Assembly (NCBI GenBank): GCA_050273025.1
Contig: CP158635.1
Coordinates: 2,356,001-2,420,000 of the forward strand
Origin: Cenococcum geophilum
Taxonomy: Eukaryota
Direction: 5' to 3'
DNA: 64,000 nucleotides
Part shown: one piece after another, positions 12,350-58,600 of the stretch
Layout of the letters: each line of letters opens with the position of its first letter
How positions within the stretch are numbered: the first letter of the stretch is position 1
Notes under the pieces: generated by a model
Told to the model about the DNA's origin: nothing
Seen by the model: the letters and a program-made list of their open reading frames with translations, nothing else
Databases searched by the model: none
Program-made: the position numbers and the translations under genes

Positions 12350-12609
12350 ACGGCCTACCCAAACAATAACCACCCAAGGTACTCCACACGTCCGCGATAC
12401 AGATATATCAACAAAATAGCCTTATTAATCTTATATAGCTGCTAAGTTTTATCCTTTCTATAAATTTTAGTTTTTATATAGAGTATAAAAGGCTATTTTT
12501 TAAGTTTAAATATCTAGCACTTAATATTATAGTAGCTATTCTAGTATTTTTAGAGTGGCTATTATAGATCTATATAGGTTTTATATATATTATCTAGCAT
12601 TTAATAAAG

Positions 12610-13400
12610 TAGGGGGCTGTAAAACACAATTATAGAATAGAATAGATTATAGAGGAGATAAATCCTTAAGGAGGTAGGGTCTCTAGAATTGTAAAGACAA
12701 TATACTATAGACATATAGCTTTAGTATATAACTAGCGACTATCTAAGCGGCGTTTAGGGGTTGTTTTAAGGGTAACCTAAGGTAACTGCAATAATATCCC
12801 TTATATTAACCCCCGCCCCTCTTTATAGTTAGCCCTTAATTGCTATTACCTTATAGTATAGGGAGATTATAAGGGCTTGTCTCGGAAGGGGTTCGGAGAG
12901 ATATTAGTATACCGCTATATATTACCTATCTATCTAACCCCTACTTTAAACTCCTAAAAACCTTAATAGGGAAAAAATATAATAAGAAAAAAGACGTACG
13001 GATTATTAAAAGATCGATTAAACGCCTACCGGAAGTATACTAGTAACTACCTAAGTTAACCTAAGAATTTTTATATAAATCTACTTCTAAGCCTTTATAC
13101 TAGTCTGTAATTAATCGCGAGTATTATAGGTAACTTAGTGTTTTTAGTATAGTTCTATAGAACCTTTTATTATAGGATTTAATATATAGGGCCTTAGCTT
13201 ACCATCGTTTTTAACTATTAAGATATAATCTTTATAATCTGTAATCATTTTTTATAATCCCCTATATTACTAATATATTACTCCCGCACTTGCCTTTAGG
13301 CTATTATATATAGTTAGGTAATTAATTAGTTAATTAAAGAGACTTATATCTTAATATTTGGTGTATATACTTTTAGTAAAATCTCCTTAATACAATATAG
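12610..13400 (-). mobile_element. Truncated Gypsy 3' end (partial LTR, PPT, 3' UTR) related to Gypsy-4
   Basis: 12611-12805 aligns to LTR 52674-52888 (...gcaataatatcccttata); the following sequence aligns to 52890-53450. Confidence 0.85.
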
Positions 13401-14375: not shown

Positions 14376-14801
14376 ACGTAGTCGGTAAGCAAGTGGGCCA
14401 TGCAAGCATCCGGGCCACCGTAAAACCCCACCAAAAAACCCAAAAATCGGTCTTTAATATCTTAACAACGGCTTAATAATAAATTATAAAATTTTATAAT
14501 TAGACTCTTATACTTACTTTAAGACCTTTATTAGAGTTTTAGAGTAATTACTTAAGCCATTATTAATATATTAAGATTTAGCTCTTAAATCTAAGCCAAA
14601 TTATTATATCTTAAGAACCACTTATTAAATTACTTTAAAACTTTAATATAGGTCTTAAGGTAAGTATGAGAGTCTAATTATAAAATTTTATAATTTATTA
14701 TTAAGCCGTTGTTAAGATATTAAAGACCGATTTTTGGGTTTTTTAGTAGGGTTTTGCGGTGGCCCGGATGCTTATATAGCCTACTTACTTACCGACTACG
14801 T
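14376..14801. mobile_element. Fot1/pogo-type MITE (426 bp) with long TIRs
   Basis: acgtagtcggtaag...cttaccgactacgt termini; inverted arms of about 150 bp; flanked by TA at 14374-14375 and 14802-14803. Confidence 0.92.
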
Positions 14802-29700: not shown

Positions 29701-30474
29701 CCGTTAAAAGGCCGTACGGTTCATTTTACGGACTGTAAGCAGGACTTACGGCCAGCTTAGGGCACCGTTTAGAAGGCAGCCTAGAAGGCACCTCGGGAGG
29801 AGTTTCCTATGTATTTTCTTATGTGTTTTATGGTTCTATTAAGGCAATTATAGAGGCTGTACACAAGTAGTTTCATTTTCCAAGTACCGCTAGTATATAA
29901 TTATAGCACCTGGTATATAAACGCGTAAATACGCGTTCGTGCACCAACCACCTACGTGCTGACTAATTAGGGGGGAGGCGCGTTAGTATATAGACCACGT
30001 AATCTACCTCAATAGAATCGACAGTTACCACTATCCCAAAGAGCATACAATACTATATGTATTTCGTGCCCCGGGATACGACTCACTTGTGCTATTAAGT
30101 TAGTACGAACACGCACCTTAATATCTCTATAACTACTTAATAATAAATTCTAATATTTTAGATTTAGGCTTTTATATATACTTTATAGCCGCTATTATAG
30201 TTATATAGTATATAGTTTAGTAGTTATTAAGATATAGCAATTTAGCATTATTTAGAAGCTAAAATAAAGTTAAATTGCTATATCTTAAAAACTACTAAAC
30301 TATATACTATATAACTGGAATAGCGGCTATAAAGTGTATATAAAAGCCTAAATCTAAAACATTAGAATTCATTATTAAATAGTTATTAAGATATTAAGGT
30401 GCGACTTTTCTAATTTTTAGTAAGTTTTAAGGTGGCCGGCTTGCTTAAGTAGCCGACTTACCTATAGAGTACGT
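23794..30474. mobile_element. Second Fot1/pogo-type MITE (~434 bp), split by the Copia insertion
   Basis: acgtactttataag...ctatagagtacgt termini, TA-flanked; pieces 23794-23869 and 30117-30474; long inverted arms. Confidence 0.88.
23870..30111 (+). mobile_element. Full-length Ty1/Copia retrotransposon, probably GalEa clade
   Basis: 218-bp LTRs at 23870-24087 and 29894-30111 with 10 differences, all transitions; TSD cgcac. Domain order gag (ATG 24467), protease IDTGAS ~26252, integrase LHRRFGHP ~26690, RT KSRLVVQAYND ~28045 and QTDD ~28450, RNase H FTDASF ~28930 and NPxDAMTK ~29318. Confidence 0.95.
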
Positions 30475-31599
30475 TAAGAATATTTCCTATCTCTAAGTTG
30501 TCTATTAGAGGTATAGCATTCCTATCTTTAATTTAGTAACCTTTATTATTTCTAATACCTTTTATTAGATCATTATATTCTAATTATTATAACTAGCTTC
30601 TTTTAATTATTCTTTTATTTAGTAAAAATATACTATTATATAGTGGTATATATAACTAGCTTTTATAGTAATATATACAACTAGCTTTACCCCTCCTCCT
30701 TAGTAAGTTATAGATTTAGTACGCGCATCTAATTTCGCCTAATTGCCATTAACTATATATAGTAATTAAAGTAAAGCCAAGTGCCTAGTTGCTAGGGGTA
30801 ATTAAATTAAAGCTATATATTTAGACCTTACCTAGCTTACTAAAGTTTAAATATTAATCTAAAATAGTATTATAAAATTCTTAATTTACCTTTAATATAA
30901 ATCCTCTTTTAAAACGCATAGCGGCTTAATTAATAGGTATATTTCCTTACCCTTAACAAAATTAATAAAGCCTTCTTCCTCCCTTATTATATACACTTCT
31001 GCCTTTATAAAGTTCTTGCTAAAATACCCTATAATAGCCGGCAAAATATAAATATAAAACTGTTTAGCTAAACTTTATATTAAGGGAGCTTAAGAAAATA
31101 GAAAATAATTTAAAAGCTATAGATAAGGATAATAAGGAAGATATAGAGGCTTGGCTTAACTATATATAAAGTTAATAAACTTCTTATATATAGAGCTAGT
31201 AGGCTTAATTAAGGCTATATAAGTTACTATATTTAATATAGGATTCTACCTACTTATAGTTAAATATGCTAATACCGCGATAATAAGCTACAGCCTTATA
31301 GGCAGTTGCTTAAGCTACTTAAGCTCCTCTATAAAATACAATTAAAGATATATAAAAAAATAACCCCGCCACCTTACCTATATATAGAGAGTGTGAGGGC
31401 GTAAAGAGGCTTTAGGGAAGATTTAAAGGAACAATATAAATTCTATCTAAATCTAAGGGTATATAGTTCTTATAAAGTACAAGACGTTATATAAAGAAGA
31501 AAAAGGAATAACGAGAGAATTATATAATTAAATAGTTAGGGGTCTTAGTGGTTAATATATACGTATATACATACGCGGTCTTTAATAGACTTTAGTAGA

Positions 31600-37014: not shown

Positions 37015-40000
37015 TGTTACGGACGCTTTAAGTACAATATTATAACTACTTGGAGAAGAGACGGAAGAAGCTAGTTGGTTAATACAGGCACGGTCTAGGA
37101 TAGAGCCAATAGAACTATGTGACGAGGAATGGTAACCAAGGTCATATAATATAATCTGTATAATCTGTGTAATCTATAGGATCTATAACAGATTAGATAA
37201 AGTATACGTACATTACGTACAAGAAGGATTTCATAGGAGTACGGTTGTGTATTTAAGGACCCTTAGTCCCTACCTAGATAGTTCCTTCCTTATAGTAATT
37301 CTCAGAATATAATTAGAGTTAATTTATTAGGTAACCACTCCACCAGTTATTATTACGTTGTTAACTTTTATACTTGCATTTCCTACACACCTAGCCCAAT
37401 AACGAGCCTATCGTAGTTCTTGCTATAAGGTTTCGTTATATAATTACTACCTAGTTACGGTATTAATATAAGAAGTCAAACAATATGCCACCAAAAGCAG
37501 CCACCATAATGCCATTAACGGCAGTAACTACTTTAGGGACAGGAGGTGATATTAGTATAGCAGATACTAACTTACAGCAACCTATGACGGTTGGATAGCT
37601 ATAGGAGATAGTTAACTAGCTAATAGCTAACAATATAGTATTGGAAGAAAGACTTAACGGGATAGGAGCAGTAAAGATTAAGCTACTATTAATTAAGAGA
37701 TTTATAGGAGAGAGGTTAAAGCTTAAAGGATTCCTTACGCAGATGCACTTTAAGGTCTTATAGGAGGGAGTAAAGTTACCTATACCTGTGGATTGGATAG
37801 CCTACGCAGGACTATTCTTGTTAGGAAAAGCACTTAAGTGGTTTAAACCTTACCTTACGGAGATACAGGTAAACGGAATAACGACCACTAACTAAGACGT
37901 TTGATTTATGTTCTTAAGTTAGGAAGGATTTACAGAGTGACTTACGCAGATGTTTGGAGACCTAAAAGAAACAACTACAGCGGAAAGAAAACTCCAGAAC
38001 CTTATATAACGAACTTTAGTAATTAAGTATATAATATAGTTCTAGATACTAGCAATATAAGTAAAGTAGAATAATAGGGCGCTTATGGCATAGTACAAAC
38101 AGGGACTTAAGGCTAAAGTTTAGGACGTAATTATCCTAATAGAAGATGCGGACACCCTAAGGGAACTAATAGATTAGGCGATTAAGATTAATAATTGGAT
38201 CTACTAAAGGGAATAGGCTAATAGAGGCTAGAATAAAGTTCTATAGTTATATAAGGCGCAGAGTACGCAATAATAAAAGCTAAGTTAGAAACTATGGTAT
38301 AGCGCAAAGCTAATAGACCTAAGTGGTACTAAAGAAGCCTATAAGAGATAGAGCAAACTATAAAAACCCAGAGGATAAGGATTAAGTAATTAAAGGTCTA
38401 AGGAGCAGAGGCCAAATCAGGGATCTTAACAGCAGAAGATATTCAGGCGGACTTTATAGCAAGAGAAATAGTTTAAAAAAGGAGCTTGCATAAATTGCGG
38501 AAAATAGGGTTATTACGTTAGAGACTATAGAAGTAGGCAGAGTTACTATATAGTAAAAGGTATAAGACTAGTAGACGATATATACGTACAGAGGGATAAT
38601 AATATGCTGTAAGGAACAAAAAAATGTTTAATTAGAAGTTTTGCGTTTTGTTATAATAACGTATACCAAATTTATAAGGACGCTAAGTACGGCGCAAGCT
38701 ATTGGCTATAGGAGCTAGCACTTATAAAATATAGAGAAACCAACGAACTAGTTTGTAGATCGGATATTAAGAACGATAAATTTAACCTAGGCGAAATATT
38801 CTATAATAATAAGGCAATAAGGGCCGCTTATTAAAAGCGAGTAAACCTTAGAGATGTTATACTAGAGGTAGAGGATAATTCCACTACAGAATAGGGAATA
38901 TTAGTAGGGATTAAAACCCCACTAGATACGATGTCTATCGCTTTATAAGACGTAAGAGAAGTAGAATAGCAAACCACTTCGGCACTTAATAAAGGCAAAA
39001 GGCTAAAGACTTAAGATTCTTAAGACGAGATAAGAGACGACTAAGATTCTTAAGAAGAGATAAGGCATACCTAAGGACCTATAACGGACGAAAACCGATA
39101 GAGCAGGGCAATAGCTTAGTTTAGAAACATACAAATAAGCTTAGGATAGAGTTTCCCATAGGCACAAGACTCTTAAGATAAGATAAGTGAGATTTAAGAC
39201 TCTTAAGACAAGATAAGAACACTATAAACGCCTAGTTAGACTAAGGCGGGAGCTAAGCTTAAGTTAGAAGCAAGCTTAGGATTAAAGAATCTAAGGAACT
39301 AAGATTTCGGAGTACAAATAAGGACACCTATAGGTAAGAGGTAAGGAGCTTCTTTACAGATTAGAGAATCTGTAATATAAATAGCAGTTAGATTAAGAGA
39401 CAGATATATAAACCTAAAAGACTTACTAGGGGAACGCAGTGTTTAGCCTAAAGATTAAAAGTTTAATACTAGGATTAAAAAGCAAGACAACTTTAAGGAT
39501 TAGGGCGTAAGGCGTAAACCAAAAGAAACTATAAAAGAGTTTAGACAAAGAATTATCGCATAGCAAGAACAGAAACTAGATAAGAGATTTAGTATATTAG
39601 GACGTATAAAGGATAGAGCACTAGTATAAAGAATCACTAATAGGTTAAGAGTAGGTATACTAAGAGCTAAGTGACTTACCGAACTGGAAAATAAAGAGGA
39701 TTTAGGGATTTTAACTAGGTTTAAGGAATAATATATAAAGGGCTGTCATAATACAGTAATAAGAAGATACTTCCTTATGGATAAGCCGTATATACTCTAG
39801 TAGCTATACCAAAAGTAGTATAGGCAAAGGCATAATGATAAGTAGGAAGATTTCTATATATAGTTAGATAAAAAAGTTATCTAGGACCACCTAATTATAG
39901 AAAAGGCCATAACGTATATTAAAGGAGCCTTAATTATAATATTAAAGGATCTAGAGGAACGTTTAAAGGACTAGAGAAGTAAAAGACGCATCTTAGTACC

Positions 40001-43000
40001 TATAAATAAAGTTATAATATTTAAATTAGCACAATAAAGGTTTAAACTTAGGGATAAAGATAAGCTAAGAGTTAACCTAAAGCACCTAGCATACTATACG
40101 TTATTATAGATTGCGTATATAGACGATATATATAACATATATAAGAATCCAAAGGAAAAGAATTAGAAATATCCTATAAGGATATACTGGATAACGGACG
40201 AGTAATAGTATAGGAATGCTAAATATATATATAGATGGCATCTAGCAGAGGTTTAAGAAAAAGGAAGTTTAGTATTTTAACCAGAAAGATTCCTTATAGA
40301 AAAATACTTAGACGGATGACAGTGGTGGGAATGCCTAGAAAACACGTGTTTATAGTATATTAAAGATAAAAAGCGATCTAGGCATTGGCTAAAGAATAAG
40401 CCAAGTATATTAGGATTAAGCAGCTAATAGTTAGGAAAAGTAGAGGCCTATAGGACTAGAGGGAGCTAGTGGTAGAGCCTTAGACCTTTAAAGGAATTTA
40501 AGAATAATACCTAAATTTATGAATTAATTGGTAAGATTAGCAGTTTAAAGCGCTAATAGATAGTAGAGCAACGCAAAACTATATCTTACTAGTAGTAGTT
40601 AAAAGAATAGGACTACCTTATAGATAAAAGGAGTAACCTTACCTATTAGTTATAATTTTAGGAGATCTAATAACCTATAGGGGAGGGATTATTAATCTTA
40701 AAATAGGACCTATTTAGATAACTATTAAAGGGAGATAAATTAAGATGTCTTTTAATATCCTACTATTGGGACGGGATAAGGTAGTATTAGGCATACCTTA
40801 ATTATAGGAATATAATCTAAGGATTAATTAGATTATAGGTTAGGTTAATATTAAAAATACTTAATGCCGTAAAATATAATAATAAGCTAAGTTGGTATAG
40901 TACTAAGTAGGAGCAACCTATAAAGAAATAGAAAAAGAACTAAGTTATATACTAAAGAGATACTATAAGTATAGCAAAAAACTATAGTTACTAGAAAGTA
41001 AAAAGCTGTTAGAATATATAGTATAGGACTATAAGATAGAGTTAGAACTAGGAATAAGTTTAAAGTTCTTTCTAATCTATAAGCTTATTAAAAAAGAAGG
41101 TAGAGCGTTAAAAGAGTTTATTTAGGAAAATTTATAAAAGGGATATATTAGACCATCGCAGTTATTAGCGGGTTATCCAGTACTATTTATACTAAAGAAA
41201 AATGGTAAACTAAGGCTGTATATTAACTATAGATAGTTAAATAGTATTACTAAGAAGGATAGGTATCCTTTACCCTTAATTAGCGAAATCTAAGATAGAA
41301 TAGGTAATGCGTAAATCTTTATAAAGATAAATCTAAGATGGGCGTACTATTAGATTAGGATTAAGGAAGGCAATAAATAAAAGGCAGCCTTTAGGTTAAA
41401 GGAAGGACTATATAAACTATTAGTTATATAATTTGGGCTTATAAACGCACTAGCAACGTTCTAAAAGCGTATTAATAATATATTAAGAGAATACTTAGAT
41501 GAATTTATTATGGTATATCTTAATAATATTATTATCTACTTAATAATAGAGGAAGAATACGGAGAATACATTAAATAGGTTTTAAAGAGACTATAAGAAG
41601 AATAGATGCTAGTAGTAATTAAGAAATACGAGTTCTTTACTAGGAAGACCGATTTTATTAGATTTATTATTAAACTAGGCCAACTTAGTATAGATCTAAA
41701 GAAGATTAAGGCTATAGTAAATTAGTAGAAACTAGAAAACGTTATATAGTTAAGATTATTTTTAGGGTTTTGTAATTACTATAGAAGGTTTATAGCGTAG
41801 TGGTTAAAGAATATTAAGCTATTTACGCGGTTAATAAAGAAAGAAGAACTATAGGTATAAGGAGAGGAATAAAAAGAACTCTTTAAAAAAGTTAAAAAGA
41901 TATTTACCTAAGAGCTAGTTCTTAAGATCTATTAACTAGGACTAGAGACGGTTATAGAAATAGATGTATTAGACTATATACTAGGGGTATACTTTATATA
42001 AAGGTATTAAGATGGATAGCACCTAGTAGTATACTATAGTCGGAAAATAACACCGCTAGAGTTAAACTATAACATCTATAATAAGGAGTTATTAGGTATA
42101 GTTATAGTATTAAAGGAATAGAGAGCATTCTTATAAGGCATAGAGAAACTATTTATAGTTAAGACGGATTATAAAAACTTAATAGAATTCCTAATAACAA
42201 AGGAACTTAACTAAAGATAGGTTAAATAGGTAGAGATACTTACAGAATACCATTTTAAGATTTAGTATACTAAAGGTATAAATAATACGCGGGCAGATGC
42301 TCTAAGCCGTAAAGCTAAATTATAAAATAAGGAAAAGCTATCGGGGGCTTTATTGCGAAAAGATATAGACAGATTAATTAGGTATAATTATCCAAAAATT
42401 ATAGCAACTTAAGAAGATAGTAAACTAGAGAAAGTTCTATAAAATACCGGAAAGCTTTTAGGTATAAAGAATTCTAGAAGTATAGCTAGAAGATCTACAA
42501 ACGGATATATACAAAAAATTAAGAAGTAAAGTATATCCTAAGAAGTATAGCAGAGCAGTTTATAGAAGACTTCTATAAGGGACTAACTTAAGGATATAAT
42601 AGAGCTACGAGCTTAGTGTTAAGACTTTAAGAGGAGTATATTATTAACGGAATCTAAAGGATAGCTAGAAAAGTTATAAAGAAATATCTAGACTACTAAA
42701 GGAATAAACTAATAAGGCATAAGCTATATAGAGGGCTATAACCTATTAAAATACTAGAGAGACTATAGAAGGTTATATTATAGGACTTTATTATTAAGTT
42801 GCTAAAATTAAAAAATCCTATTATCGGATAAGATTATAACGCGATCTTAGTAATAGTGGATAAGCTTATAAAGTGGGGATACTTTATAGCATATATAGAA
42901 GAAATCTTAGCAAAAGATGTCGCTAAAATCTATATTAAGGAAGTATTCGTAAAATATAGAGCACTAAGTAAGATTATATTAGATAAAGATCTAAGATTTA

Positions 43001-44990
43001 TAGCAGCATTCTAGGAAGTATTCTTAGTAAAGTAGGGGGTTTAAGTAGTAACTTCTACTGTATATTATCTATAGACAGACGGTTAAACAGAAAGATTAAA
43101 TTAGATACTAGAGCAGTACCTAAGGCATTATATTAATTATACATAGAACAATTGGGTATTGCTATTATTAGTTACATAATTTATATATAATGTAATACCT
43201 TAAGAAGGGATAGGCATATTACTATTTAAGGCAAATTACGGATATAAGCTAAGGATATTATTATTACTATAGCAAATAAAGAAAACGAGTAGTACAGCTA
43301 AAGAAAGAATAAAGACGTTAATAAATCTTTATATAGACCTTATAGAATTAGTAAAGAAAGTATAAGAGAGAATAAAAAAGTACTATAATGCGAAGAGATC
43401 TAAGGGACTAGATCTTAAGGAGGAAGATAAAGTATGGCTACTACACAAAAATTTTAAGAGTTAATAACTAAGCAAGAAGTTGGACTATATTAAACTAGGA
43501 CCTTTTAAAATTACATAGAGGATTTTATTAATTACGTTTAAGCTAGACCTACTAGCTAAAATAAAGATCTACCCTATATAGCATATCGCAATGCTAGAGC
43601 CAGTATATAGGAATATTAAGCCACCGGTTTATAAAGTAGACATATATAGAGGATAAGAAGAAGACGAATAGTAAGTTTTAAAGATCGTTAGTTATAAGGA
43701 CATTAACGACGAAATATAGTATAAGGTTAAGTGGATAGGCTACACTAAAACTACCTAGGAGCTACTAAAGAATTTAAAGAATGCTATAAAAAAGGTATAG
43801 GAGTATTAAAAGAGATTAGGTTAGATAGTATTAATAAAGAAGAATTACTAAAGAACGAGTTACCTAAGGGGGACCTAAGAAGAGCAGTTACTAAACTACT
43901 TAGATCTATTTCCTTCTCTATTAGAAGAGAATCCATTCTTTTATTACCTAGTTTCTATAAACCTTATTCTATAAGTTTCTACTCCTTAAAACAAACCTTC
44001 TTACGCATCTTCTTAAGACGGATTAGCCAAGCGGACGCCGCTAAATAAGACTTAAGAGCCCGTTGCTAAGTATCGGCAGCCTCCTGTTTAGCGTCCCAAG
44101 ATCGGCGCAATTTAGCAAGAGTAACAGATAGTTTATTATCTAGCCGTATAGCAGCAGATTAAATATAAAACCCTAAGATAAATTAATTAGGGAACCAGAC
44201 GACTATTAAGAGTAATAGGTCGCGTATATTTAGTATTAGAAGTAGAGCGAACGTCACAGGACGAATAAATATTCGCTTTAGTACACTTTAAGTAAGAGAA
44301 CGGTTATCGCGAAGATAGGTTCGCCAACGCAATATAAACCAACCCCTTTTTTAAATAACGAGAATATAGAGACGGTATAATCTTACTAAGAGACAATATC
44401 GCAGCAATAGTACGAGCACAACGAGCAGTTAAGGAAGAAGAAATTGCTTTAGGTATAATAAGCAATAATATTAACCAAATTAATTAGACGGATATTATAC
44501 CTCTAATAAACAACTTAAAGATATTTTAAATCTTCAAGGACAAAGATAAAGAGGAGGGAGATGGTGTTACAGACGCTTTAAGTATGATATTATAACTACT
44601 TAGAGAAGAGACGGAAGAAGCTAGTTAGTTAATATAGGCACGGTCTAGAATGAAGCCGATAGAACTATATAACAAGGAATGGTAACCAAGGTTATATAAT
44701 GTAATCTATATAATCTATATAATCTATAGGATCTATAACAGATTAAATAGAACACACGTATATTACGTATAAGAAGGATTTTATAGGAGTACGGTTGTGT
44801 ATTTAAGGACCCTTAGTCCCTACCTAGATAGTTCCTTTCTTATAGTGATTCTCAGAATACAATTAGAGTTAATCTATTAGGCAACTACTCCACCAGTTAT
44901 TATTACGTTGTTGACTTTTATACTTGCATTTCCTACACACCTAGCCCAATAACGAGCCCATCGTAGTTCTTGCTACAAGGTTCCGTTATA
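37015..44990 (+). mobile_element. Full-length Ty3/Gypsy chromovirus (Gypsy-2)
   Basis: 426-bp LTRs at 37015-37440 and 44565-44990; TSD tctag/tttag; gag ATG 37485; CCHC knuckle 38487-38528; protease LIDSGA ~40553; RT YLDD ~41516; RNase H ~41960; integrase ~42570-43300; chromodomain ~43660-43800; PPT 44548-44564. Confidence 0.95.
43900..44456 (-). pseudogene. Antisense accessory gene of Gypsy-2: Zn2Cys6-like cluster plus helical tail, one intron
   Basis: De-RIPed C-x2-C-x6-C-x13-C-x2-C-x8-C; splicing a 55-nt intron (44227-44173) restores the frame through a split Trp codon. Confidence 0.65.
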
Positions 44991-47900
44991 TTTAGCTTAT
45001 ATAAGAAACCAAAGAAAAAGAAGCCACCCCTTATTGTCTCCTAAAAAAGATAGCTAAAATCTAAAAAGAAACCTAGTAAAAATGAGGTCCTCTAGGGCTA
45101 GTTTATACTTCCCCCCTCCTTTAAAACAATTCCTATAAAAGGCCTTAGAAAACCTAACCCAGGCCTATCTAAGGCTAGAAGGAGAAAGTAAGGAGCAAGT
45201 TAAATATATTAAGGACGACGTACAAAGAATTATAGTAGGAGAAAATCCTTCTATAAAAGAAACAGAAAAGGAAAAACAGGAGACAGATATCCTAAAAGGA
45301 CTAGTAAAAGAAGTAAGAGCCCTCCACAAGGAGGTAGCCCCTAAAACCTACGCAGAAAAGTTAAAGAAGGGCCTCTCTTCTTCTACTTACTCTTCTTCAT
45401 TGTCGTCTCCTCCTTCCTCTACTACCTCTTCTTCTTCTTCTTTACCCCCTACCTCCTTAATTCCCCCTACTAGTAAGGTAACTAGTAGCACTACCAGTTC
45501 TACAAGCCCTACCTCTACTAGAGGGAAAAAGAAGCAGCTATAAGAAAGAGGACTAGTCCTAGTTACAGACCAAAAGGACTAGCCTCTAGATATCTTCTCT
45601 ATACGAAATACAATTAATTAATAATTTATGTCTAAATTGCAAATAGAGAAGCTAGTTATAGCTTCTATAGCTAGAACTAGAGAAAAGCAGAATATTCTCC
45701 TTATAATAACGGAGGAATATAATGCAGATTTTCTAGTTAAATATAAAGAAGTCTAGTCTAGCTGCTTCTCCTTTAAAAGAGAATAAAAACTAGAGCCCTA
45801 GGCCCAAATAGTAGCTTATAGCGTCCCTATCCCCCCTTTCCTAGGAGAAGGAGGCTCTAAACTTCTAAAGGAAGAAATAGAGACCTTTAATCCTATTAGG
45901 ATACAGGGATAACCTAGATAGATCTCTTCTAGGGTAAAGAGATATAATCCACAAACTAGGTTTGGCTCTATAGTATTTACTATAGAAAATAAGGAGAAAA
46001 GATAGGAAATCCTAATTGCAGGGGTAGCTACTAAGGTAGTTAAATACCTAGAGGTCTCTCCTACTATATAGTGTACAAGCTGCCAAAAATTTGGCTAAAT
46101 AGGAGATAGATGCTCTATAAGGGCCTGTTAGTTTTATATAGCAGTATACCTATCTAAAGACCACTCCTATTTAAGTTGTAATATAATAGGCAAGCCTTGC
46201 GAATATACTACCCCTCTTTGCATTAATTGTAAAGAAAAACACTTTACTACCAGTAAAGACTGCCAGTCTCTTAAAGTAGCTAAGTTAATATACCAATAAG
46301 TATATACTTAGAAGGTTCTATACAGGAAGAAGAAAAAATCTCCCTAGCTTCTAAAACTAGGGGAGAAATCTCCTTTATATAATATAATGTAGGAAAAAGA
46401 TAAGAAGTATAGCAAACCCTACTAGAAATAGGATTTAGGAGAAAAATAAATATTATCCTAGTATAGGAACCTAGTACCTGGAAAGATAGACAAAAAGGAT
46501 CCTACTTCTCTATTCCACATCCTGCATTTAACCTTATCCTCCCTAGCAATCTAGCTATTCGCCCTAGAGTAGCTATCTATATAAGGAAAACTAGTTCTAG
46601 TATCCTATAATATAGAAACAGAGAGGATATCTATAAAGATACAGATACTATAGCACTAGAAATCTATGGCCAATTTAAGAAATTTCTACTGCTTAATATC
46701 TACAATAAGAGATAACTAGACGAGAACTCTAGAACCTAAAGTAATAGTAGATCTACTATCTCTAGGGCTATTCTAGAACTAGAAATAGGCCTCCCCTTTA
46801 TGCTAGTAGGAGACTATAACCTATACTGTATAAGGTGGAACGCACTAGCTAGGAACTTAACTAGAGAGGCTAAAGAACTAGTAGATTGGTTAAATAAACA
46901 CAACTACCAATTACTAAATTCTGATAAATAAGAAGGGACCTTTTATAGATCTAATATAAGAGAAAAATCGATTATAGACTTAGCCTTCTACTTAGGAAAC
47001 TTTTAAGAAAATACCTAGGATAATTGGACTATAATAGAAGAAACAGGATTTAATCACAAGACTATAGCCTTCTCTCGATTTACTAGAGAGACGTAAAGAT
47101 ACCTAAACCCTCTTTAAGAAACTCCGTTTTCTATAAAAAAGGCAAACTGGAAGCTCTTCTCTACTTCTTTAATAGAACTAGTTTAAAAGCTAGAACTAGA
47201 AGCAAAAATCTTAGTACTAGAAGAACTAGTAGGAGAAACCCCCTATATAGAGATAGGAGAAAAAGGTCCCTTAGCCTCTCTAGAGGATTTGTATAGACTT
47301 AGGGATAAAAGTATAAGTACGCTAGCAGATAATCTAGTTATAGATCTTACTAGCTATATTAAGCTAGTAGTAGAGAAAGCTATTCCTAGATCTAGAACCT
47401 ACGAATTCTTTAAACTATAGTGGAATACAGAGCTTCTATAAAAAAGGAAAAAAATAGCAAAACTAGGAAGACTTCGAGAAGAACAACCTACTAGAAGTTC
47501 GAGACTAGAAGCCTATAAGGAAGCTAAAAATCAATACTTCTATGTAATAAGAGAAGCTAAAACTAATTGCTAGAATAGCTTCCTAGAAAAGGCATAGGGA
47601 AAAGAGATCTTTACTGCCCTAAAATATATAAAGGAGAAAACATTACAAATAATTCCTAGTCTATAGTATTGTAAGGATGGAACTACGAGACTAATAGAAA
47701 GCTTTAACGACTAGTGTAAAGCTTTTATTACTACTCTATTTCCTAAACCCCCTTCTTCTACTAGCTTTATAGAGTTGAAGAACTATACTATAGATAGTAA
47801 ATAGGAATGGCCAGAACTAGAGAAGACGGAAGTTAAATAAGCAATCTTCTCTAGCTCTAATAAAAAAGCTTTAGGGCTAGATAAGCTATCCTTTACAATC

Positions 47901-50900
47901 CTATAAAAGGCCTACCCTACTATAGAAGATCTTCTATATAGAATCTATAGGATCCTATTTACCCTAGGTTATTAACTAAAAGGCTAGAGAGAGGCTTAAG
48001 GAGTTATTCTCCCTAAAGTAAATAAAGAGAACTACTTTCTACTAAAGTCCTATAGACCTATCTCCTTACTAAACTACCTAGGAAAGACTCTAGAGAAGAT
48101 CTTTACCACTAGATTAGGATATCTAGCTAGTACTACTAGCTTACTTTAAGACTCGCAACTAGGAGGAAAAAGACAGCGGTCCGCAATAGACGCAGTCCTA
48201 CTACTCCTAAATAATATCCAGTCTAAAAATAATAGGAAAAAAGCCAGACAAAGAATAGCTACTACGCTATTTCTAGACGTAAAAGGGGCCTTTAACTATG
48301 TCTTTGCAAACCAGCTTCTATCTATCTATAAGGAACTAGGGCTACCTATAGCGTTTACGCAATAGGTAGCTACCTTCCTTAGCAATAAAAAGCTACAGCT
48401 CTGCTTTAATAGACAAATATAAAAAAGGTAGAAATAGAAACAGGGATACCACAGGGCTCGCCTATATCCCCTATTTTATTTTTACTATATATACATAATA
48501 TCTACAGCCTATAGATAGAAGGTGCCTATTCCCTTAGCAATATAGACGATTTTGCAATTATAGTTACTTTAAACTTAGCTAAATCCAATTATAAAAAGCT
48601 AGAGGGAATAGCGCTAGAGCTAATGTCTAGAGCTAAAGAAGCTGCTATTAGTTTTGATATTAGCAAAACAGAGCTTATACACTTCTATAGTAAGCGTACC
48701 ACTATAGAAGATAGGCTAAAGCTAGGAGATATAGAAATATCCCCTAAACCCCTAGTTAGGTGGCTAGGGGTATTTCTAGACTCTAAGCTTACTTTTAAAT
48801 AATATATATAAATAAAAATCTCTAAAGCAAAAACAGCCTTCTATTTAATTAGAAGACTAGGTAATATATAAAAAGGTCTATCTCTATAAGCTCTACAACA
48901 GCTCTATATAGCTTACGTTACTACTATAGCAGACTATAGAATATAATGCTAGTGGAAAAGCGAATCTAGAGACTACCTACTAGCTAGGTACCAATCTCTA
49001 CAAAATGAGGCCCTAAAACTAGTTTTAGGAACATTTAGAGGATCTCCTACGCAAGCTATAGAAATCGAGGCCTCTATCCCTCCTCTTAGAATTAGATTTA
49101 AAAAGCTTTGCAATAGCTATATATTAAGAATCCTAAAATTTAAAGAAAACCACGTAATTAAAAAGGCCTATATAAAAGAGATTAATAAAGATAGGGAGGA
49201 ACTAGTAACTAGTTCTAGTTCTAGTCCTAGCCCTAGAAACTCTACTATAAGATACCTTCTATAGCTAAAAACTCAACTACTATCTCTAGCTTCTAGAGTC
49301 CAGCAACTAATTTAAAATTGGAAAATAGAGAGAATCTCTTTAGATTGGTAAAAACTGTAGTCTCTCCCTATTTCTGCATCCTTTTCTATCTCTAGGGGTA
49401 GTAAAGAAGAAGCTGTATAAGAATATTTAAGACTAGTAGAAAATTTACAAGAATCCCTAGAATGGGACTTAGTAGATATATACTATATAGATAGCTTTAA
49501 AGATAGTAAATTAAGTGTAGCGGCCGTATGTAAAATAGGGGAGAGAAATAGGATTAAATACGCAATAAATTGGAATCTAGGGCCTTATATGGAAATTATA
49601 GGCGTAGAACTTTATACAGTCTATAAGGCCCTAGAATATCTAAAATAATAAAGACTAAAAGAGGAATAAGTTTATATCTTTATAGATAGCCAAGCAGCTA
49701 TTAAAAGATTATAGCTTAATTCTCTTACAGGGGGACAAGAACTAGTCTTTAAAATTACGCAAAGCTGCTCTTATCTAGCTAGCAAGAATATCTCTATTAA
49801 CTTTTATTGGGTTCCTAGCCACCTAGAAATCTACAGAAACGAAATAGTAGATAAGCTAGCTAAAAAGGGCCTCTCTAGAAGAAAAATATAATCTTCTTAT
49901 ATATCCCTAGCCTATATAGGGAGAGCAGCAAGAGAAAAAATACTAGGATAGTGGAAAAGTAACTAGCAACAGAAAAAAAATAAAGGAAAATACTATACTA
50001 GGATCTCTAGAGGAAACTACTTTTTATCTCTTAAAGCCCCTAAGGATAAATATCCTAAAAGGTTACAATTAGCTTTCTATTAACTAAAACTAGAAAAAGG
50101 CTTCTTTAAATCCTTCTCTAAGACAATAGGGAAGGATAAAGAAGGTAGATGCTTTAAGGACTGTAGAGCTATATAGACTTCTAAGCACCTATTACTAGAA
50201 TGCAGACTATATAGAGAAGAGAGAAAAGAAATGCAAAGACAACTAGGCTCTTCTCTCTCCCTAAAGAAGCTCTTTTATATAGAGAAAGGAAAAAGGGCGC
50301 TTTTCTTATTCCTAAGTAAGACAGAAATAGCTACTAGAAAGTGGCTAATGGAAGTAAAAGCTTTAAAAGGAGGTAACTCCTACTAGACTTCTAGTAAATA
50401 GACAGTAGTAAGTAAAAGGACAGAAATAAACTATATAATGTACAGGGGCAGGCGTTAGGATTTGTTTACCATTTCTTTTACTATTTTTCTACTGTTTTAA
50501 TACTACCTAATAGTTGTCATAACCTAGTATTTTACTAGGGAGCGGTAAACCTCTAGTTTAGAGGTTTATAAACTACTAGGACATAGCTACTAGTATATAT
50601 TAAGCTGCCTAAAAAGGATTTATATATATAAAACTATAGCGCTATAGCCCAGAGGCTGCATATGTAGTATTGTACGTAGTATAATATAATAGATATAAAA
50701 ATAAAAATAAAAATAAAAAATTTAGGTTATTAAATTCTATTAAATTCTACTAGGTACCAAATTCTGCCAAATTCTACTAAATTCTGCTAAATTCTGTTAG
50801 GTTGCCAAAACTCTACTAAATTTTGTTAAATTACTAAGTTCTACTAAATTCTGCTAGGTTAACAAGTTCTGCTAAATTCTACTAGGTTGCTAAAGTTCTA

Positions 50901-50910
50901 CCAACTTTTA

Positions 50911-51094
50911 TATTACGGCACCGTAACAGATCTAGTTAGGGGGCTCGCTTAAGCCTTAGTAAATATATATAGATATATCCTTTTCCACCTTCTACTCCTT
51001 ATTTTAATATCCGGGTTTATAGACATTCCAATTATATAGGCTTGCATACGTTCTTTACGGCGCTCATACCTTAATTAACTGAGTCGCTATGATA
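50911..51094. mobile_element. Solo LTR (184 bp) in the minisatellite
   Basis: t(a)ttacgg...ctatgata termini (RIPed TG...CA); TSD tttta 50906-50910 / ttcta 51095-51099. Confidence 0.75.
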
Positions 51095-52364
51095 TTCTAC
51101 TAGGTTGCTATCTGCAAAATTCTACTATATTCTACTATCCCTATAGTATTTATCCTCCGCCTCTTAAAGCACTTCCTAGCCTTCTCTCTTTACCTTAGCC
51201 AGCTCTCTAGCAAATAAAAGGTATAATAAAAGGTTTATCTATATAAACTAGTCCGCAACTACCTTAATAGCCTTTAGCTTAGTTAGGAGCTCTTTATATA
51301 AAAATATTCTAGTATAGTAATATATTTCCGCCCAGCTAGCAGCGTACCTAGGGTAGAATACTACTACATATATTATTAATTATCGGCTATAGCCGCATAG
51401 GTAGGCCGGAGTTAGGTACCCTAGTACTTTTTAGTAGTAGAGGTATCTATTAAGCCCTATATACTTGGTTCTAAGTAGTATATTAATTATACTTTTTATC
51501 TTTATAAGTTTCGCGTAGCGTTTAAAGACTTCCTTATTCTATAGCTCGGCCTAGGCCGTTATATAATAGGTAAGCGTACTCTAATACTTTTCCTATCCCC
51601 TTTTCTACCACTCCTTAAACGCCTCTTATACCCTAGCCCTTTTACTTCTTTTATACTGCGTTTTAGATAAGTTATTAGTTATATATCTATCTCTAAGATA
51701 GCGGCTACTATTCTCTTAAGCTTATCCCATCTAGTAGGCCGCATTAATAGCTTTATTTTAGGCCAGAGTTAGTAGGCTATTATGGCCTATATAGTATTAC
51801 ACTCCCTCTTAATATGCTCTCTTACTAGTCCTTCTAGCGTCCTCTCTACGTAAGCTATAGCTAGCTCTTTAAGGTATATCTAAAGCGGCGGAAACCCCGT
51901 CTTATACTCTAGTACTACTATAAGCGTTAATTTATACGCCCCTATAATAGTGTAGAGGTATAGGTTCTATACTATACCCAGCTAACACAGCTTAGTTTTA
52001 CTTATCTCCTTAGGGTTTATCTACTTTAGTAGTAAGTACTAGGTACTATATTTATATAAAATTGCTAGCCGGACTATAGCGGAGTATACTATCCACGCCT
52101 TTTAGAAGGAGGCGCCCTATATAGAGGCCGTAAGCTAGGTTAGTACAGCTATTTAGGTAATTGCTTATCTTAATAATATTAACATATAGTCTCTATTTAA
52201 GCTTTAAGTTAACTTATACCCCTAATACGCGTAGGTTACTAACTAGGCCTTCTATAAAGCTATATATATTAACTATAGCCTTTATATTAAACTTCTTATA
52301 GCTCCTTATAAAATAAATAAGGTTATACCTTTTAGGGGTAAATACTACCCTATACTGGCGTGCC

Positions 52365-52519
52365 TATCCCTTAGCACGGTACTTCGCGTCCTACTAGTAT
52401 TAATAAGAGCCAGCCAATAAAATCAATAGGATTAAAACTCCGTAGCTATACGCGTACTTTTAATTCTAGTATTCGCGCACAGACCACTTAATCGTAGGAC
52501 GCTACCGTGCTAAGGGATA
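52365..52519. mobile_element. 155-bp insertion with terminal inverted repeats (MITE or atypical solo LTR)
   Basis: Perfect 17-bp inverted termini tatcccttagcacggta...taccgtgctaagggata; interrupts the LINE RT. Confidence 0.75.
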
Positions 52520-52673
52520 CTATATATACCTTATACGCCCTTTCCTTAGTTCTATAATTCTCCTCTATAGTCTTGCTATATATTAGTATATTAAAGTTAT
52601 TAATAAATCTAAATGCCGTAGTAGTTCCCCCTTATAGCTCTAGTAGGAGTATATAGGCAAAAAAGAGGAGTAG

Positions 52674-55600
52674 TATAAGGGGATCTTATAGACAGGGGGC
52701 TATAAGGACATAATTAGAATAGGATAAATTGGTAAGAGAGACAAATCCTTAAAAAGGTAAGACCTCTAAAATCGTGGAGACTATATACTATAGGCACGTG
52801 CCTTTGGCACGTGACCGGCAACCATCTAAGGGGCGTCCGGGGGTTATCCTAAGGGCAACCTAAGGTGTCCGCAATAATATCCCTTACATTGCCCCCCCCC
52901 TTCTTACGGTTAGCCCCCGATCGCCATTACCTTACAGTAGGGAGATTATAAGGGCTCGTCCTGGAAGAGGTTCGGAGAGATATTAAAGAGGTGTCGGCAT
53001 ACCGCTGTATATCATCTATCTATCTAACCCCTGCTTTGAACTCCTAAAAAACCTTAATAAAGAAAAAACATAACTAGAGAAAAGACGCGAGGATTGCTAG
53101 GAAACCTATCGGAAGCCTACCGGAAGCATGCCGGTAACTACCTAGGCTAATATAGGGATTTTTATATAACTCTGCTTTTAAGCCTTTATGCCGGTCTACA
53201 ATCAATCATAAATATTATAGGCAATTTAGTATTCCAGTATAGTTCCGTAAAACCTTTAGTATGGGATTTGACGTACGAAGCCTTGGCTTGCCGTCGTCTT
53301 TAACTGCTAAAATATAGTCTATAATCTTTTCTCATAATCCCCTACGTTACTAACGCATTGCTTCCGCATTTGCCCTTAGGTTATTAGATACGGTTAAGGT
53401 ATTAATCAGTTAGTTAAAGAGACTTATCTCTTAAGATTTGGTGCATGTGGTTTCAAATCTAGTAATCCTATGCTGTATATTTGGCGTAGCTCTACTACCT
53501 AGCAAATAGGGACATTTCGCGATAGCAATTGTAGCTATTATACAATTATCAAGAACGTCTATAACGTTATTCTTTAATACTATGGTATCGTTTTAGGCCT
53601 AATTTTACCCATATGCGTCTTTAATTTAACGTCTTAATTGCCTTCCCCCGGCCGCGTAGTTAGTTTTTATAAGGAGGTAATAGTTAAATAACTTATACGC
53701 GTGTTTCCTTCCTTCTAAATAGCGCTATTGTAACGGAGTTATATCGGTAAGGTTGCGGCTATTCACTAGAAGGGTATTAAAAGGTAAAGTATAAAGACAC
53801 CTTACTCATCGAGCTGCTCCTTTTCTTAAACACCTCACTTCTCGCCATTAACCGTCGTCCAATTTTAGACGTATCTTCAATATATTATTAAGATTTTCTT
53901 CTTTTTTATCAATAATTTAATATACCTCTTCGTTCTCCTACTAACTACTCTTCTAAGCAAATTCTATAGCGTATCCTAGCCCTACCTTTACATATAGAAC
54001 CCTAACCCCCACTAACTCGCAACTAGTACTAGTCCTGCCTAAATGATTTTACCTATACGTCTTTAAAAGACCAGAAATCTAATAATAGGATTCTAGAGGC
54101 TTATAATAAGACGCACTGTATTAGATCTAATACCTTCAGTCCTTATAATTAATGCATGCGTACTAAGAGCGGCAGTTGCGTTAAGGTGAGTTTTTCTATC
54201 CTTAATAGATTTCCATTGCTGACTTTAAGCTTTAATAATAGCCTGGGCCTAAGTGGCGACGTTCCTTTAATATCCTTAACTACTACATCGCCCGAGCTCT
54301 CTCTCATTCCAACGTAAATGCTAAACAACTTAGCCAAATTTAAGACTATACCACGGCCATCTATACTACCCATAATTCCTAGCAAGCCAGCTAGCAACGC
54401 CTAATGCGAGAGCAAGGTTAGTATACTAAGGATAGGGTAAGGGATGGGGGTAATAAGAAGAAGGTTGCCGTCTACTATAAGAAGGAGTTTGCGTATACAC
54501 GTTAAGTTTTAAAAGAGCATAACATAATACAGTATGAGGTAGGTTACCCTTCGGGTACCTAGCGGATAGGTAACTAACGGTTACCGTAGTAAGGTCTCAG
54601 TAGTTCTGGACTATGCCAGCCAGCTAACGTCTCTATTTATTCTAGGCTTGAGTGTGTTTTTATTAACTATAAGCTTACGCCGCAAGAGCTTCGTTGGTAT
54701 TGGTTTAGACCTAATATTAGTGTTAAGCATTTAAGAGTCTCTGCTCTAGCTACACCTTATCGTCCTGCCCCTGTTTTTATGCCTACTTATACGCCTACTA
54801 AGGCATCTGGATCCTATTCTCGTCAGCCATCACTTAGTGGCCCGATGGATACTAATCCTACTCCTAATAATAATAGGGCGTAGTGGCTTTTCAGATTGGG
54901 CATTTATGGTTTAGACTTTTGGGATTTGTTCTTGTATATAGTAGCAATTAAGGACCTTAATTAGGTATTTAGGAAGGCCTCGGAAGGCTTTTGGGAAGGG
55001 CTTAAGAGCCCTAGGAATAATATTCCTAGTATAGATTAATGAATGGGAATGCAATTCTAGTAAAATGCCCTATTAACTTTATGCTATATACGTGAAAAGG
55101 CTAAGGACCCGTCCTACCTTAGGCTATATAGCCCTAATCCTTATGGTTTCTGGAGCTTGTCCGTTCTATATCCGATTTAACCTATTTACTCTTTTCGCAA
55201 GCTTTCTTTATAGGTCGCGATAATACTATAGTATTAGAGCGCTTTCTACGATTTGTAGATTATAGACCTTGGTCCTAATATTCTTTTAGAATATCTTTAT
55301 AATAATTAAGGTGATCCTCTAGTTTCTATATAGAGTCCTTAGTAGGCCAGCCTAGCTATTTAACTTCAAATTAAAGCTTGTTCTTAACAGACTTATAGCG
55401 TAGTATAGCTTTAACCTCGTACCGCTCGCCTACTACCTTAGGGTGTTTAATTAGGCCTAGACGGAAGTTCTTTTCCGGCGGTGGTCTATGCTATAGCTCT
55501 AGTAGGTTTATATAAAACACTAGATATATATAGGCCATAGATAGGGGTAGCTGGAGACGATAGGCTAGCTTGCTAATTTGTTCCTTAACTTAGAAGGGAC

Positions 55601-58600
55601 CTAGGTATCTTATATTAAGCTTCTTTAATAGTTAACGGGTCTTAATATTTGTTAAACGTAATAGAATCTTATCGCCTACTCCGAAATGCTTGTCCTAGTG
55701 CTTGTAGTTGTACCAAAGTCTCTACTACTCTTGGGTATCTTATAGGCTCTGCTTTGCATGCTTCTATTACTCCTCCCATTCTTAGAGGTATCCTTATACT
55801 CTTCGGTAGATGTCTTTAAACTTCCCGGTAGGATTCTATAACTAATTATACGGCCTTAGCCAGTAATTGTTAGGTATACTATTAAACCTAAATAGTCGGA
55901 CGCCATAGGCAATCTAGATTAGTGCATACTTATACAATATATATTGCTTTGAATTATAAGCGTACTCCGCGTACGGAAGTAGCTCGCACTAGTTGTTTTG
56001 CTAGTAGTTTAAATATATCTATAGGTAAGACTCTAGTTCCTAGTTCTGGCGTTCCGTTTACCCATCTATCTATAAATAGAAAGCTATACTATAATAGTGG
56101 TCTATCTTTAAATAGAAGCATAGATCCGACTAGTACTAGCTTATAAAGACGCTGCCCCTATTAGTAATAATAGAGTGCAGCTAATCTACTTTAAGAAAGC
56201 ATTTCTCCTTAATTAGGTTGGTAAGCTCTTATGCGTTAATCGTCTTGTTAACGGAAAGGTATTGGACGTACTTTAAAAACCTATTAATAAGTATAAGGAC
56301 CAAATCGTATATTCGTCCTTAGCCATCTTTAGATAGCGGGAGATCCGTAATAAAGTCTATGGCGTAATGTCGCCATAGCTTACTAGCGGGGGGAACTGAT
56401 TTAAGTAGACCCTATGGCTTATACCTACGGATCTTATATACTTAACACTTCTTACAATAGCTAATGTACTCCTTTGCTTCCTAATTAAGCCTTAACCAAT
56501 AGTATTTGCGCTAAAGTAATTCTACTGTCTTTGCTTAACTATAGTGGCCGCCTAAAGGATCATCGTGATTCTTTATAAGAATCTTCTGTCGTAGATTTGC
56601 TTCTTATAGCACCTAAACCTTACCACCTCTATATAGTAGGCCCATTGGGTTTAGTTCCCAATGGTAGCACCTAGCAGCTTCCTTTCTATTACGTTTCCGG
56701 TCTACTTCCGTATTAAGAATGGCATAGGAAGCATCCCTCTGTTATACCTCACGGATGAGATCCGTTAACTCTTTGGATAGTTCCTAGGTAAAAGCTATTT
56801 TATCCCATACTGCTCTAAGTATAAGACTAAATAGTACCATAGATCTTATAACTCTTTAATGCGCGTGCGTTAGGAAGGCCGCTACGAGGTTAAAGTCCTT
56901 TAGTTGTTATAGGGCTCCGAGTTTTAATTGCTCTATAGCTTCGCTATTGGTTTAAGGGGATAGCTTAGCAATTAGGGATAGTATATTACTAGGTTCCGAG
57001 AATGTATTAGGGACGTCCTATCTAGGTATATTTAGACCCTTATTAGTAACGGACCGGGTACTAGCTAGAACGTTAGTGGAAACCAATAGGGCTTATACCG
57101 CCTAAGACTCGGTGTATAAAGCTATAGGTGCTTAAGTATCCCACACCTAGAGCTTGTTCTATAATATAGGGAGTAAGATATCTATTATCTGTTTTCCTTC
57201 TCCCGTTTTAAAGCCTTTAGTATAGTCTGGCCGTCGTAACGGTCCATTAGTAGGGTTGTTTTCCCCTAGCTTGTATTTAATCTTAAAATCAAATCGCGTA
57301 AGCTCCTCTACCTATCTAGCTTATTAAGGTATAAGCTCCTTTATAGTTATAAAGTAGTGTAAATTATAGTGATCTAAGAGTATACAAGTGGTATAGCTCG
57401 CGTGCTTAAGGTAATATCGCCACTATTTAAAGCAGTTGACTATAGCTAGTAGTTCCTTGTCATAGGTATAATACCTAACTTTAGGTCCCTAGAATTTTCT
57501 GCTATAAAATACTACTGGTCTCTAATGGAGCTGGGTAGCGTCTGGATGCCTATTGGGTTATAGTAGGATACCAGCAAGGGCAAAATTCGATACATTAGTA
57601 ATTATTATTAATGGCTAATCTGGGTTAAAATGCCGCAGCAATAGAGCTTCCGTAAACTTTACGCGAAGTTCCTAAAAGGCCTCCTAAACCTTTCCGGGCT
57701 ATAACTATAGCTTATACTATTTAGTTAGTTCCTTTTTAGTTTTCTTCCTTACCACCTTTAAGCTTTTTGCTCCTTAGGTTAGGTCTTAGGAAGCTTCTAT
57801 AATATAATTGGATAGGTATCGGGTGACGTCTAAGTAGTCATAGATAAAGCGCCTATAGAAATTGGTAAAGCCTAGGAATACTTAAATATCCTAGTAGCTC
57901 TCTAGCTCCGGCCACTCCTAGATTATCTACACCCGTACTAAGTCTATAACTATACCTATAGGCGTTATAATATAACCTAGGAACTCAACCTGCTTAGTGT
58001 TAAAGATATACTTTAACGCTTTAGCGTAGAGGCCCTAATTATCTAAACGTTCTAGCACTTCGCGGACGTGTTGCTTATATTAATCCTTATCTTCTAAGTA
58101 GATTAAGATGTTATCTAAATAGATGACGTATATGCGGTTGACTAGTCCCCCTAAGGCTCTATAAATATACAATTAGAATGTCGTAGGCGTATTGGCTAGC
58201 CCGAAAGGTATTACTAGATACTTAAAGTGGCCGTATTGGGTCTTAAAAGCGGTCTTCTACTTATCCCCTTCTTTAATACGGAGCCTATAATAGGCGTCTT
58301 ATAAATCCAACTTTATAAAGATCTTTACCCTAAATAGTTAATCCAGCATTTTACTAACTAGTAGTAGTGGGTAACGGTTCTTAATTGTAATCTTATTAAG
58401 ACCGCGATAGTCTATATATAGCCTTATAGTTCTATCTAGTTTTAAGATAAAGAGGATTAGCGCGCCTAACGGCGACTTACTAGGCCGGATCCATCCCTTT
58501 TCTAATAAGCCATTAAGGTACTCCTATAGGATCTCAAGCTCTTTACGCAAGAGGTTATAGATAGGAAGGTTCGGCGGTTATTTACCTTCTTCTAGATTAA

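Follow-up and report, generated by a model that had tools for sequence, protein, structure and literature searches.

An antisense, intron-containing cysteine-cluster gene in one Gypsy retrotransposon family of Cenococcum geophilum and a probable counterpart in a second

In Boty-like Gypsy elements of fungi, published descriptions place an extra antisense gene, brtn, between pol and the 3' long terminal repeat (LTR) (PMC8365987, PMC7264820, PMC4227169). Antisense open reading frames (ORFs) between pol and the 3' LTR are likewise described for plant LTR elements, among them maize Grande, rice RIRE2 and Silene Retand with its TRP28 (PMC7264820, PMC11963269), and HBZ of human T-cell leukaemia virus type 1 (HTLV-1) has been named as a parallel to these plant genes (PMC11963269). 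We analysed a 64,000-nt stretch of the Cenococcum geophilum genome (contig CP158635.1, positions 2,356,001 to 2,420,000; here called the window), in which two Gypsy retrotransposons, Gypsy-2 and Gypsy-4, both harbour an opposite-strand reading frame between pol and the 3' LTR, as a sequence-only reading of the window had proposed. The Gypsy-2-type gene is a real gene that was once under selection and whose copy in the window is dead through repeat-induced point mutation (RIP); the Gypsy-4-type gene is a probable one, and its window copy is also dead.

The brtn precedent, which the sequence-only reading had invoked, is in print for Boty-like elements (PMC8365987, PMC7264820). The window genes share with brtn the slot between pol and the 3' LTR, the orientation antisense to gag-pol and a fungal chromovirus-like Gypsy host, but the comparison is by description only and the brtn accounts, in the parts available, mention neither a cysteine cluster nor an intron (PMC8365987, PMC7264820, PMC4227169). 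Retention in most copies with coding-like conservation applies to the Gypsy-2 type and more weakly to the Gypsy-4 type. An antisense passenger gene of this kind is already known from Boty of the grey mould, and the present genes are further members. The plant ORFs have the same slot and orientation, occur in most copies of their families and have been given a proposed nuclear or DNA-binding role, but they belong to other hosts and protein families (TRP28 and others), are long ORFs in multi-kilobase pol-LTR regions, and in these partial sources are not described as encoding a cysteine-cluster-plus-helix protein (PMC7264820, PMC11963269). HBZ and related deltaretrovirus antisense genes share the production of an antisense nuclear regulatory protein (PMC11963269), but HBZ belongs to an animal retrovirus and is a basic leucine zipper (bZIP) protein that lacks a cysteine cluster; the analogy is one of mechanism only. 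Among the papers listed in literature searches, none described an antisense gene of fungal LTR elements that bears an intron or encodes a zinc cluster.

Gypsy-2 and its antisense gene are laid out in the window as follows.

37014-37313 and 44564..44863, + strand: 5' and 3' LTRs of Gypsy-2 (direct repeat family D3, 300 nt, 90%).
41190..43606 (approximate), + strand: Gypsy-2 pol, reverse transcriptase to integrase SH3 domain, riddled with stops (RVT_1, RT_RNaseH and SH3_Tf2-1 matches).
44228..44456, - strand: antisense exon 1, with an ATA start (mutated ATG), the N-terminal part and a six-position cysteine cluster.
44227-44173, - strand: antisense intron of 55 nt, with a mutated AT donor, a branch-like CTAAT and an AG acceptor.
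43784..44172, - strand: antisense exon 2, shifted to the +1 frame with respect to exon 1 and encoding a long helix and a basic KKxRKKV run.

On the - strand, ATA CCT at 44456 opens the antisense frame; 108 nt separate it from the 3' LTR. Relatives of the Gypsy-2 type have methionine in 98 of 114 and proline in 98 of 114 at these two positions, and those of the Gypsy-4 type in 16 of 16 and 14 of 14 respectively, in agreement with the proposal that both genes began with a Met-Pro start since mutated to ATA CCT. The final base of exon 1 is the T of a split junction codon. In the window, both the Gypsy-2 and the Gypsy-4 antisense frames are interrupted by TAA and TAG stops. The first in-frame stop of Gypsy-2 exon 2 (TAG, 43979-43981) is TGG in six of nine close copies, several of the TAA and TAG stops read CAA or TGG in other copies, and the exon is otherwise open as far as the TAG at its outermost end (43784-43786), which is common to all 13 copies read. 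The last third of this exon, which runs antisense over the end of pol, may or may not be coding; two intact-looking exon-2 ORFs of the Gypsy-2 type, P0201 and P0202, extend beyond the KKVRKKV run. The two frames lie where the sequence-only reading had located them, but its outer limits do not stand, as the Gypsy-2 gene extends to 43784 at most and the Gypsy-4 gene to 54505.

Codon constraint, for which the earlier reading had called, was examined in 33 Gypsy-2-type copies by tallying columns with transversions by codon position; transversions were counted because RIP yields only transitions. Exon 1 had 16, 8 and 39 such columns at positions 1, 2 and 3 (p=4e-6), and the first 63 codons of exon 2 had 18, 13 and 36 in their own frame (p=0.0014). 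Neither the intron (7, 5 and 5) nor the 150 nt upstream of the gene (9, 10 and 14) showed a significant excess. Gap runs were multiples of three in exon 1 (3, 3 and 12 nt) and in the first part of exon 2 (9 to 42 nt), and a length difference of 69-75 nt among copies sits in the intron. A third-position excess that follows the separate frame of each exon is the pattern expected of a spliced coding gene, and both Gypsy-2-type exons have been subject to purifying selection on the protein.

Evidence for the intron includes P0075, a protein of 110 amino acids from a 2113-bp JGI contig, in which the cysteine part is joined directly to the helical part with no intron between them; in the window the counterpart of the latter is found 55 nt downstream and in a different frame. 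A tblastn search of the loci with P0075 returned 34 pairs of exon 1 and exon 2, and exon 2 was in the +1 frame in all 34. One copy, L006, gave a single hit in a single frame, yet the intervening sequence is present there. Two intron lengths occur, about 55 nt (24 copies and the window) and about 118 nt (10 copies). The donor has the form T|GT(A/G)(C/T)G, with GT preserved in 8 of 25 short and 5 of 10 long introns and AT in the remainder, apart from one AC; the acceptor YAG|GG is present in 23 of 25 short and 10 of 10 long copies, and CTAAC or CTAAT is found about 13 nt before the intron end. These properties are those of fungal spliceosomal introns (GT..AG, CTRAY near the 3' end, about 50-120 nt), and removal of the intron joins two frames that each carry coding constraint. 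The proposed intron of about 55 nt after the cluster is in this way borne out for Gypsy-2 by its position (44227-44173), the frame shift, the splice signals and the intron-less P0075.

Four close proteins matched the Gypsy-2 antisense frame, and a profile built from these extended the family to 180 cluster representatives at E<=1e-3; for 95 the E-value was <=1e-10. In JGI metagenome contigs, 568 of 607 candidate stretches of the Gypsy-2 type were confirmed, and 80 loci (702 kb) were retained; a viral contig collection scanned with P0007 and P0075 contained no relative. The relatives of both gene types are nameless proteins from metagenome or JGI sources. The loci held 65 profile hits, 49 of them with at least 600 nt of downstream sequence, and 47 of these 49 face the 3' end of an opposite-strand Gypsy pol within 400 nt. 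The neighbouring pols are 36-73% identical to that of the window. The Gypsy-2-type gene is a fixed and long-retained component of a large clade of elements, arranged tail-to-tail with pol. One ENA protein of 1390 amino acids, P0072, contains 20 separate matches to the Gypsy-2-type profile (profile positions 35-67), which may represent a tandem array or a low-complexity artefact.

Counted over 153 sequences, the Gypsy-2 type has seven columns that are at least 97% cysteine or tyrosine, while the adjacent columns vary widely. The tyrosine and cysteine counts are, for example, 85 and 61, 86 and 62, 118 and 32, 91 and 46, 64 and 74, 63 and 62, and 77 and 28, and two sequences retain all seven cysteines. 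Cysteine is taken as the ancestral state because RIP characteristically changes G to A, which turns TGY into TAY. The spacing is C-x2-C-x6-C-x13-C-x2-C-x8-C, followed by x9 to the seventh column. The intron begins within this seventh 'Cys' codon, so that six cluster cysteines and a junction codon remain after splicing. In the window copy two of the six cluster codons still encode cysteine and the other four are TAT (Tyr). The six-cysteine cluster that had been proposed for both genes holds for Gypsy-2 but not for Gypsy-4, which has eight cysteine/tyrosine columns (C-x2-C-x5-C-x15-C-x4-C-x8-C-x2-C-x7-C); four of its eight window codons still encode cysteine and the other four are TAT (Tyr).

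Gypsy-4 lies in the opposite orientation.

52674..52886 and 61366-61578, - strand: 3' and 5' LTRs of Gypsy-4 (direct repeat family D2, 213 nt, 90%).
55497..58445 (approximate), - strand: Gypsy-4 pol, reverse transcriptase to integrase SH3 domain, in one frame (RVT_1, RNase H, Integrase_H2C2 and SH3_Tf2-1 matches).
53922..54185, + strand: antisense exon 1, with an ATA start and eight cysteine/tyrosine columns.
54186..54241, + strand: predicted intron of 56 nt, GTGAGT..CTGAC..TAG.
54242..54505, + strand: predicted exon 2 in the spliced frame, ending at a TAA (54503-54505) common to three of three copies.

The Pfam matches of the two pols, with stops read as X, had E-values of 2.5e-14 (RVT_1), 8e-17 (RT_RNaseH) and 3.8e-6 (SH3_Tf2-1) in the + frames of Gypsy-2, and 2.7e-24 (RVT_1), 1.8e-12 (Integrase_H2C2) and 8.7e-12 (SH3_Tf2-1) in the - frame of Gypsy-4; the same Pfam search of the antisense frames of both elements in the window, again with stops as X, found no family. 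The pols are only 36% identical over 456 amino acids and 26% over 397, and no match better than E 0.09 was found between the LTRs of the two elements; these are therefore separate families, with dissimilar LTRs and opposite orientations as first noted.

The Gypsy-4 antisense frame, matched by 40 proteins, opens on the + strand with ATA CCT at 53922; the 3' LTR is 1036 nt away. About 1 kb (52887-53921) separates the 3' LTR from the start of the gene, and about 750 nt lie between its predicted end and pol. The in-frame stops inside exon 2 are all TAA or TAG; CAA or CAG is still found in one of three copies at three of them (two TAA, one TAG), and the TAG at 54419-54421 is TGG in one copy (L034). 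The splice signals GT(G/A)AG(T/C), CT(G/A)AC and ATAG are preserved in all three DNA copies, with intron lengths of 56, 55 and 57 nt, and a form 3 nt shorter (53 nt) occurs in 15 contigs of a DNA run. Among the three copies, indels of 1-2 nt occur only in the intron and the sole exon indel is of 3 nt, in exon 2. Transversions in the spliced frame numbered 0, 0 and 5 by codon position in exon 1 and 3, 0 and 4 in exon 2. The intron had been placed just after the last cysteine, and the 56-nt candidate begins two codons past it; its support is indirect, the spliced product being absent among the 40 proteins. From these signals and substitution patterns the Gypsy-4 intron is likely. The spliced frame is fairly open past 54505 (for example 95 codons at about 54600-54880), and further exons may exist. 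A 322-nt contig (depth 4.8) from a presumed-RNA run, X24, matches 54262-54469, that is 208 nt of exon 2, with 23 differences; it diverges from the window near the intron and may derive from another copy.

The reading that we favour, with moderate confidence, is that the two stretches are remnants, inactivated by RIP, of real antisense accessory genes whose products would act as nuclear zinc-binding regulators. Several observations weigh against it. The spliced form of the Gypsy-2 type is represented by one protein, P0075, from outside the scanned contig collection, and at the junction it carries an extra residue compared with the prediction from the 34 genomic copies. In RNA run X21, of which about 12% was read, no read fell on either gene and no joint on either intron. 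The remainder of Gypsy-2 exon 2 has 12, 16 and 24 transversion columns (p=0.12) and indels of 2 and 4 nt, and throughout the codon tests the copies are related and their columns not independent, such that the p-values overstate independence. For Gypsy-4 exon 2 the DNA test comprises three copies and seven transversions (p=0.16), and 12 of the 40 matching proteins are full-length unspliced ORFs of 157-159 amino acids. With respect to the zinc cluster, none of 97 Gypsy-2-type members reached the 21-bit cut-off of Zn_clus and none of 15 Gypsy-4-type members matched it at E<=5; searches of PDB by sequence and by Foldseek both returned no match; the cysteine part of the AlphaFold2 model of P0075 has a predicted local distance difference test (pLDDT) score of 50-59; and the stretch past the third cysteine of the Gypsy-2 type is hydrophobic, not basic. 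Membership of the Zn(II)2Cys6 family (PF00172), which had been suggested for both genes, is not supported by these results.

It is possible, at clearly lower probability than the favoured reading, that the gene is real but that its cysteine domain is some other module, held together by zinc or disulfides and with RNA or protein as its target, such as a silencing suppressor, a helper in particle formation or nuclear import, or a nucleic-acid chaperone. The absence of Zn_clus, PDB and fold matches, the low-confidence cysteine model, the hydrophobic run and the eight Gypsy-4 cysteines, whose spacing does not fit the Zn2Cys6 motif, all suit this alternative. Against it, five of the six Gypsy-2 spacings fit the published motif C-x2-C-x6-C-x5-12-C-x2-C-x6-8-C, the loop of x13 being one residue over, and two lysines follow the second cysteine. 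Beyond the cluster come a linker and a helical element: in the P0075 model, built with 97 relatives, residues 47-109 form a single helix with pLDDT above 90. A long helix after the cluster is the layout of Gal4-type domains. Zn_clus, the Pfam family most frequently matched, was hit at E<=5 by three of the 97 members, with a best E-value of 0.073; DUF3716 had no match at that threshold among the 97 and 15 members. In the protein atlas the best scores (0.77 and 0.80) belonged to nameless ascomycete clusters, which are leads only. The helical second exon that had been proposed for both genes is predicted in this way for the Gypsy-2 type only. The Zn(II)2Cys6 label and the regulator role are hypotheses.

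We consider it unlikely that the Gypsy-4 frame is a single unspliced ORF of 157-159 amino acids, with a cysteine-rich head and a tail rich in serine, leucine and proline, in which the GT..CTGAC..AG signals are fortuitous. In its favour, the 12 full-length proteins have identical start and end, and two subfamilies carry compensating frameshifts within the 'intron' that keep the frame open; the protein database, however, takes in only ORFs long enough to be called. The read-through frame is broken in two of three DNA copies and its stop is lost in 23 of 37 proteins, where it has become leucine, a change that is silent in the spliced frame by our reading of the codons. Replacements attributable only to transversions in 37-41 read-through proteins fall 1, 8 and 1 by read-through position; the second positions, which take eight of the ten, are the third positions of the spliced frame (binomial 8/9, p=0.039). 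The AlphaFold2 model of the read-through protein has a pLDDT of 33.

A role for the antisense RNA itself, through double-stranded or small RNA or transcriptional interference and with the reading frame incidental, appears very improbable: transposon antisense transcripts are common and no protein function was found, but the third-position excess in two frames, the in-frame indels and the kept cysteine columns point to selection at the level of the protein. That these are element-borne antisense protein genes with introns and not chance, as had been proposed, agrees with the family size, the fixed slot behind pol, the third-position excess, the exon indels in threes and the one intron-less protein. 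Chance open frames or opposite-strand shadows of pol codon usage can be set aside almost entirely. The 3' part of Gypsy-2 exon 2 does overlap the pol tail and the - strand is open for 83 amino acids over Gypsy-4 exon 2, but most of both genes lies outside pol, family size, synteny, cysteine columns, splice signals and codon tests all speak for genes, and for the Gypsy-2 type the codon-position counts of transversions contradict it. The 83-codon open frame (54149-54400, - strand), which is pol-sense and covers Gypsy-4 exon 2 and intron, is probably an effect of composition.

Both genes have the layout of a Met-Pro start, a cysteine cluster, an intron and a second exon, and no similarity was detected between them (BLASTP E 0.66; hhalign probability 0.2%; no alignment of exon 2 with exon 2). 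The common layout may reflect old shared descent or convergence.

Under the favoured reading of real antisense accessory genes, the host elements would be chromovirus-like Gypsy retrotransposons with the accessory gene opposite gag-pol, between pol and the 3' LTR. The Gypsy-2-type gene consists of two exons in different frames with a canonical short fungal intron. Lying antisense to the genomic RNA, this intron would not be removed from it and would be copied at each retrotransposition, because of the established polarity of splice sites. The predicted product has about 140-205 residues; a short N-terminal part and six cysteines are accompanied by one alpha-helix, about 60 residues long, and by a run of lysine and arginine resembling a nuclear localisation signal. 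The Gypsy-4 gene would be parallel in layout, with eight cysteines and an intron two codons past the last of them, its splicing resting on signals and substitution patterns. We infer a small nuclear zinc-binding protein of Gal4-like layout that may bind nucleic acid and tune the transcription or silencing of its own element. Such a role would resemble that of the antisense HBZ of HTLV-1 and of the antisense nuclear protein of maize Grande; HBZ is spliced, is transcribed from the 3' LTR side and has a dimerising helix. More doubtful is the stronger proposition that ascomycete chromoviruses of a large clade produce their own minimal Gal4-like regulator (zinc cluster, pairing helix and nuclear signal) by splicing an antisense transcript from beside the 3' LTR, and that this regulator binds the LTR to switch sense transcription or resist silencing. 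If it were true, the unlike versions in the two Gypsy families would either go back to one very old common gene or have been captured convergently into the same slot.

The window as a whole is AT-rich (GC 0.25-0.43) and dense with degraded retroelements, and it holds two further features.

30441..30644, + strand: third Gypsy-2-type antisense gene fragment, comprising the N-terminal part and the start of the cysteine cluster (profile E 1.4e-11).
45000-50400, + strand: LINE-like non-LTR retrotransposon directly past the Gypsy-2 3' LTR (Exo_endo_phos_2, RVT_1 and RNase H).

The third fragment is also seen as a DNA match of 75% between 44451-44523 and 30560-30488. It adjoins an LTR-like repeat (30118-30246, similar to 14454-14582) where the window is richest in AT, which implies another nested Gypsy element in - orientation. 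Of the span 43900..54420 that had been given for the candidate system, the bulk (45000-50400, about 5.4 kb) is the LINE-like element and unrelated to the antisense genes. A few RNA reads of run X21 fall on that element, with a depth of <=5.9 at 47911-48311. A third copy of the Gypsy-4 LTR with about 550 nt of adjoining internal region (12591-13373) is 65-79% identical to 52674-53453, and the antisense-gene part does not come after it. Elsewhere, short imperfect attctactaaattctgc-like repeats run through 50700-51120, where contigs from two presumed-RNA runs accumulate (bin 50718-51118, depth 1448 and 456), and three copies of a unit of about 255 nt stand in tandem at 7913-8679 (identity 100, 89 and 72%).

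Both copies in the window are dead and have no local consequence. For annotation, genes of this kind are invisible to gene callers in RIP-degraded regions and are called as truncated ORFs in metagenomes. LTR retrotransposons are usually thought to need only gag and pol, and here a third gene has been under selection in hundreds of copies. Its antisense intron would not be erased by retrotransposition. Together these features suggest that fungal elements themselves encode a control of expression or silencing, in parallel with HBZ in deltaretroviruses and the antisense genes of plant elements.

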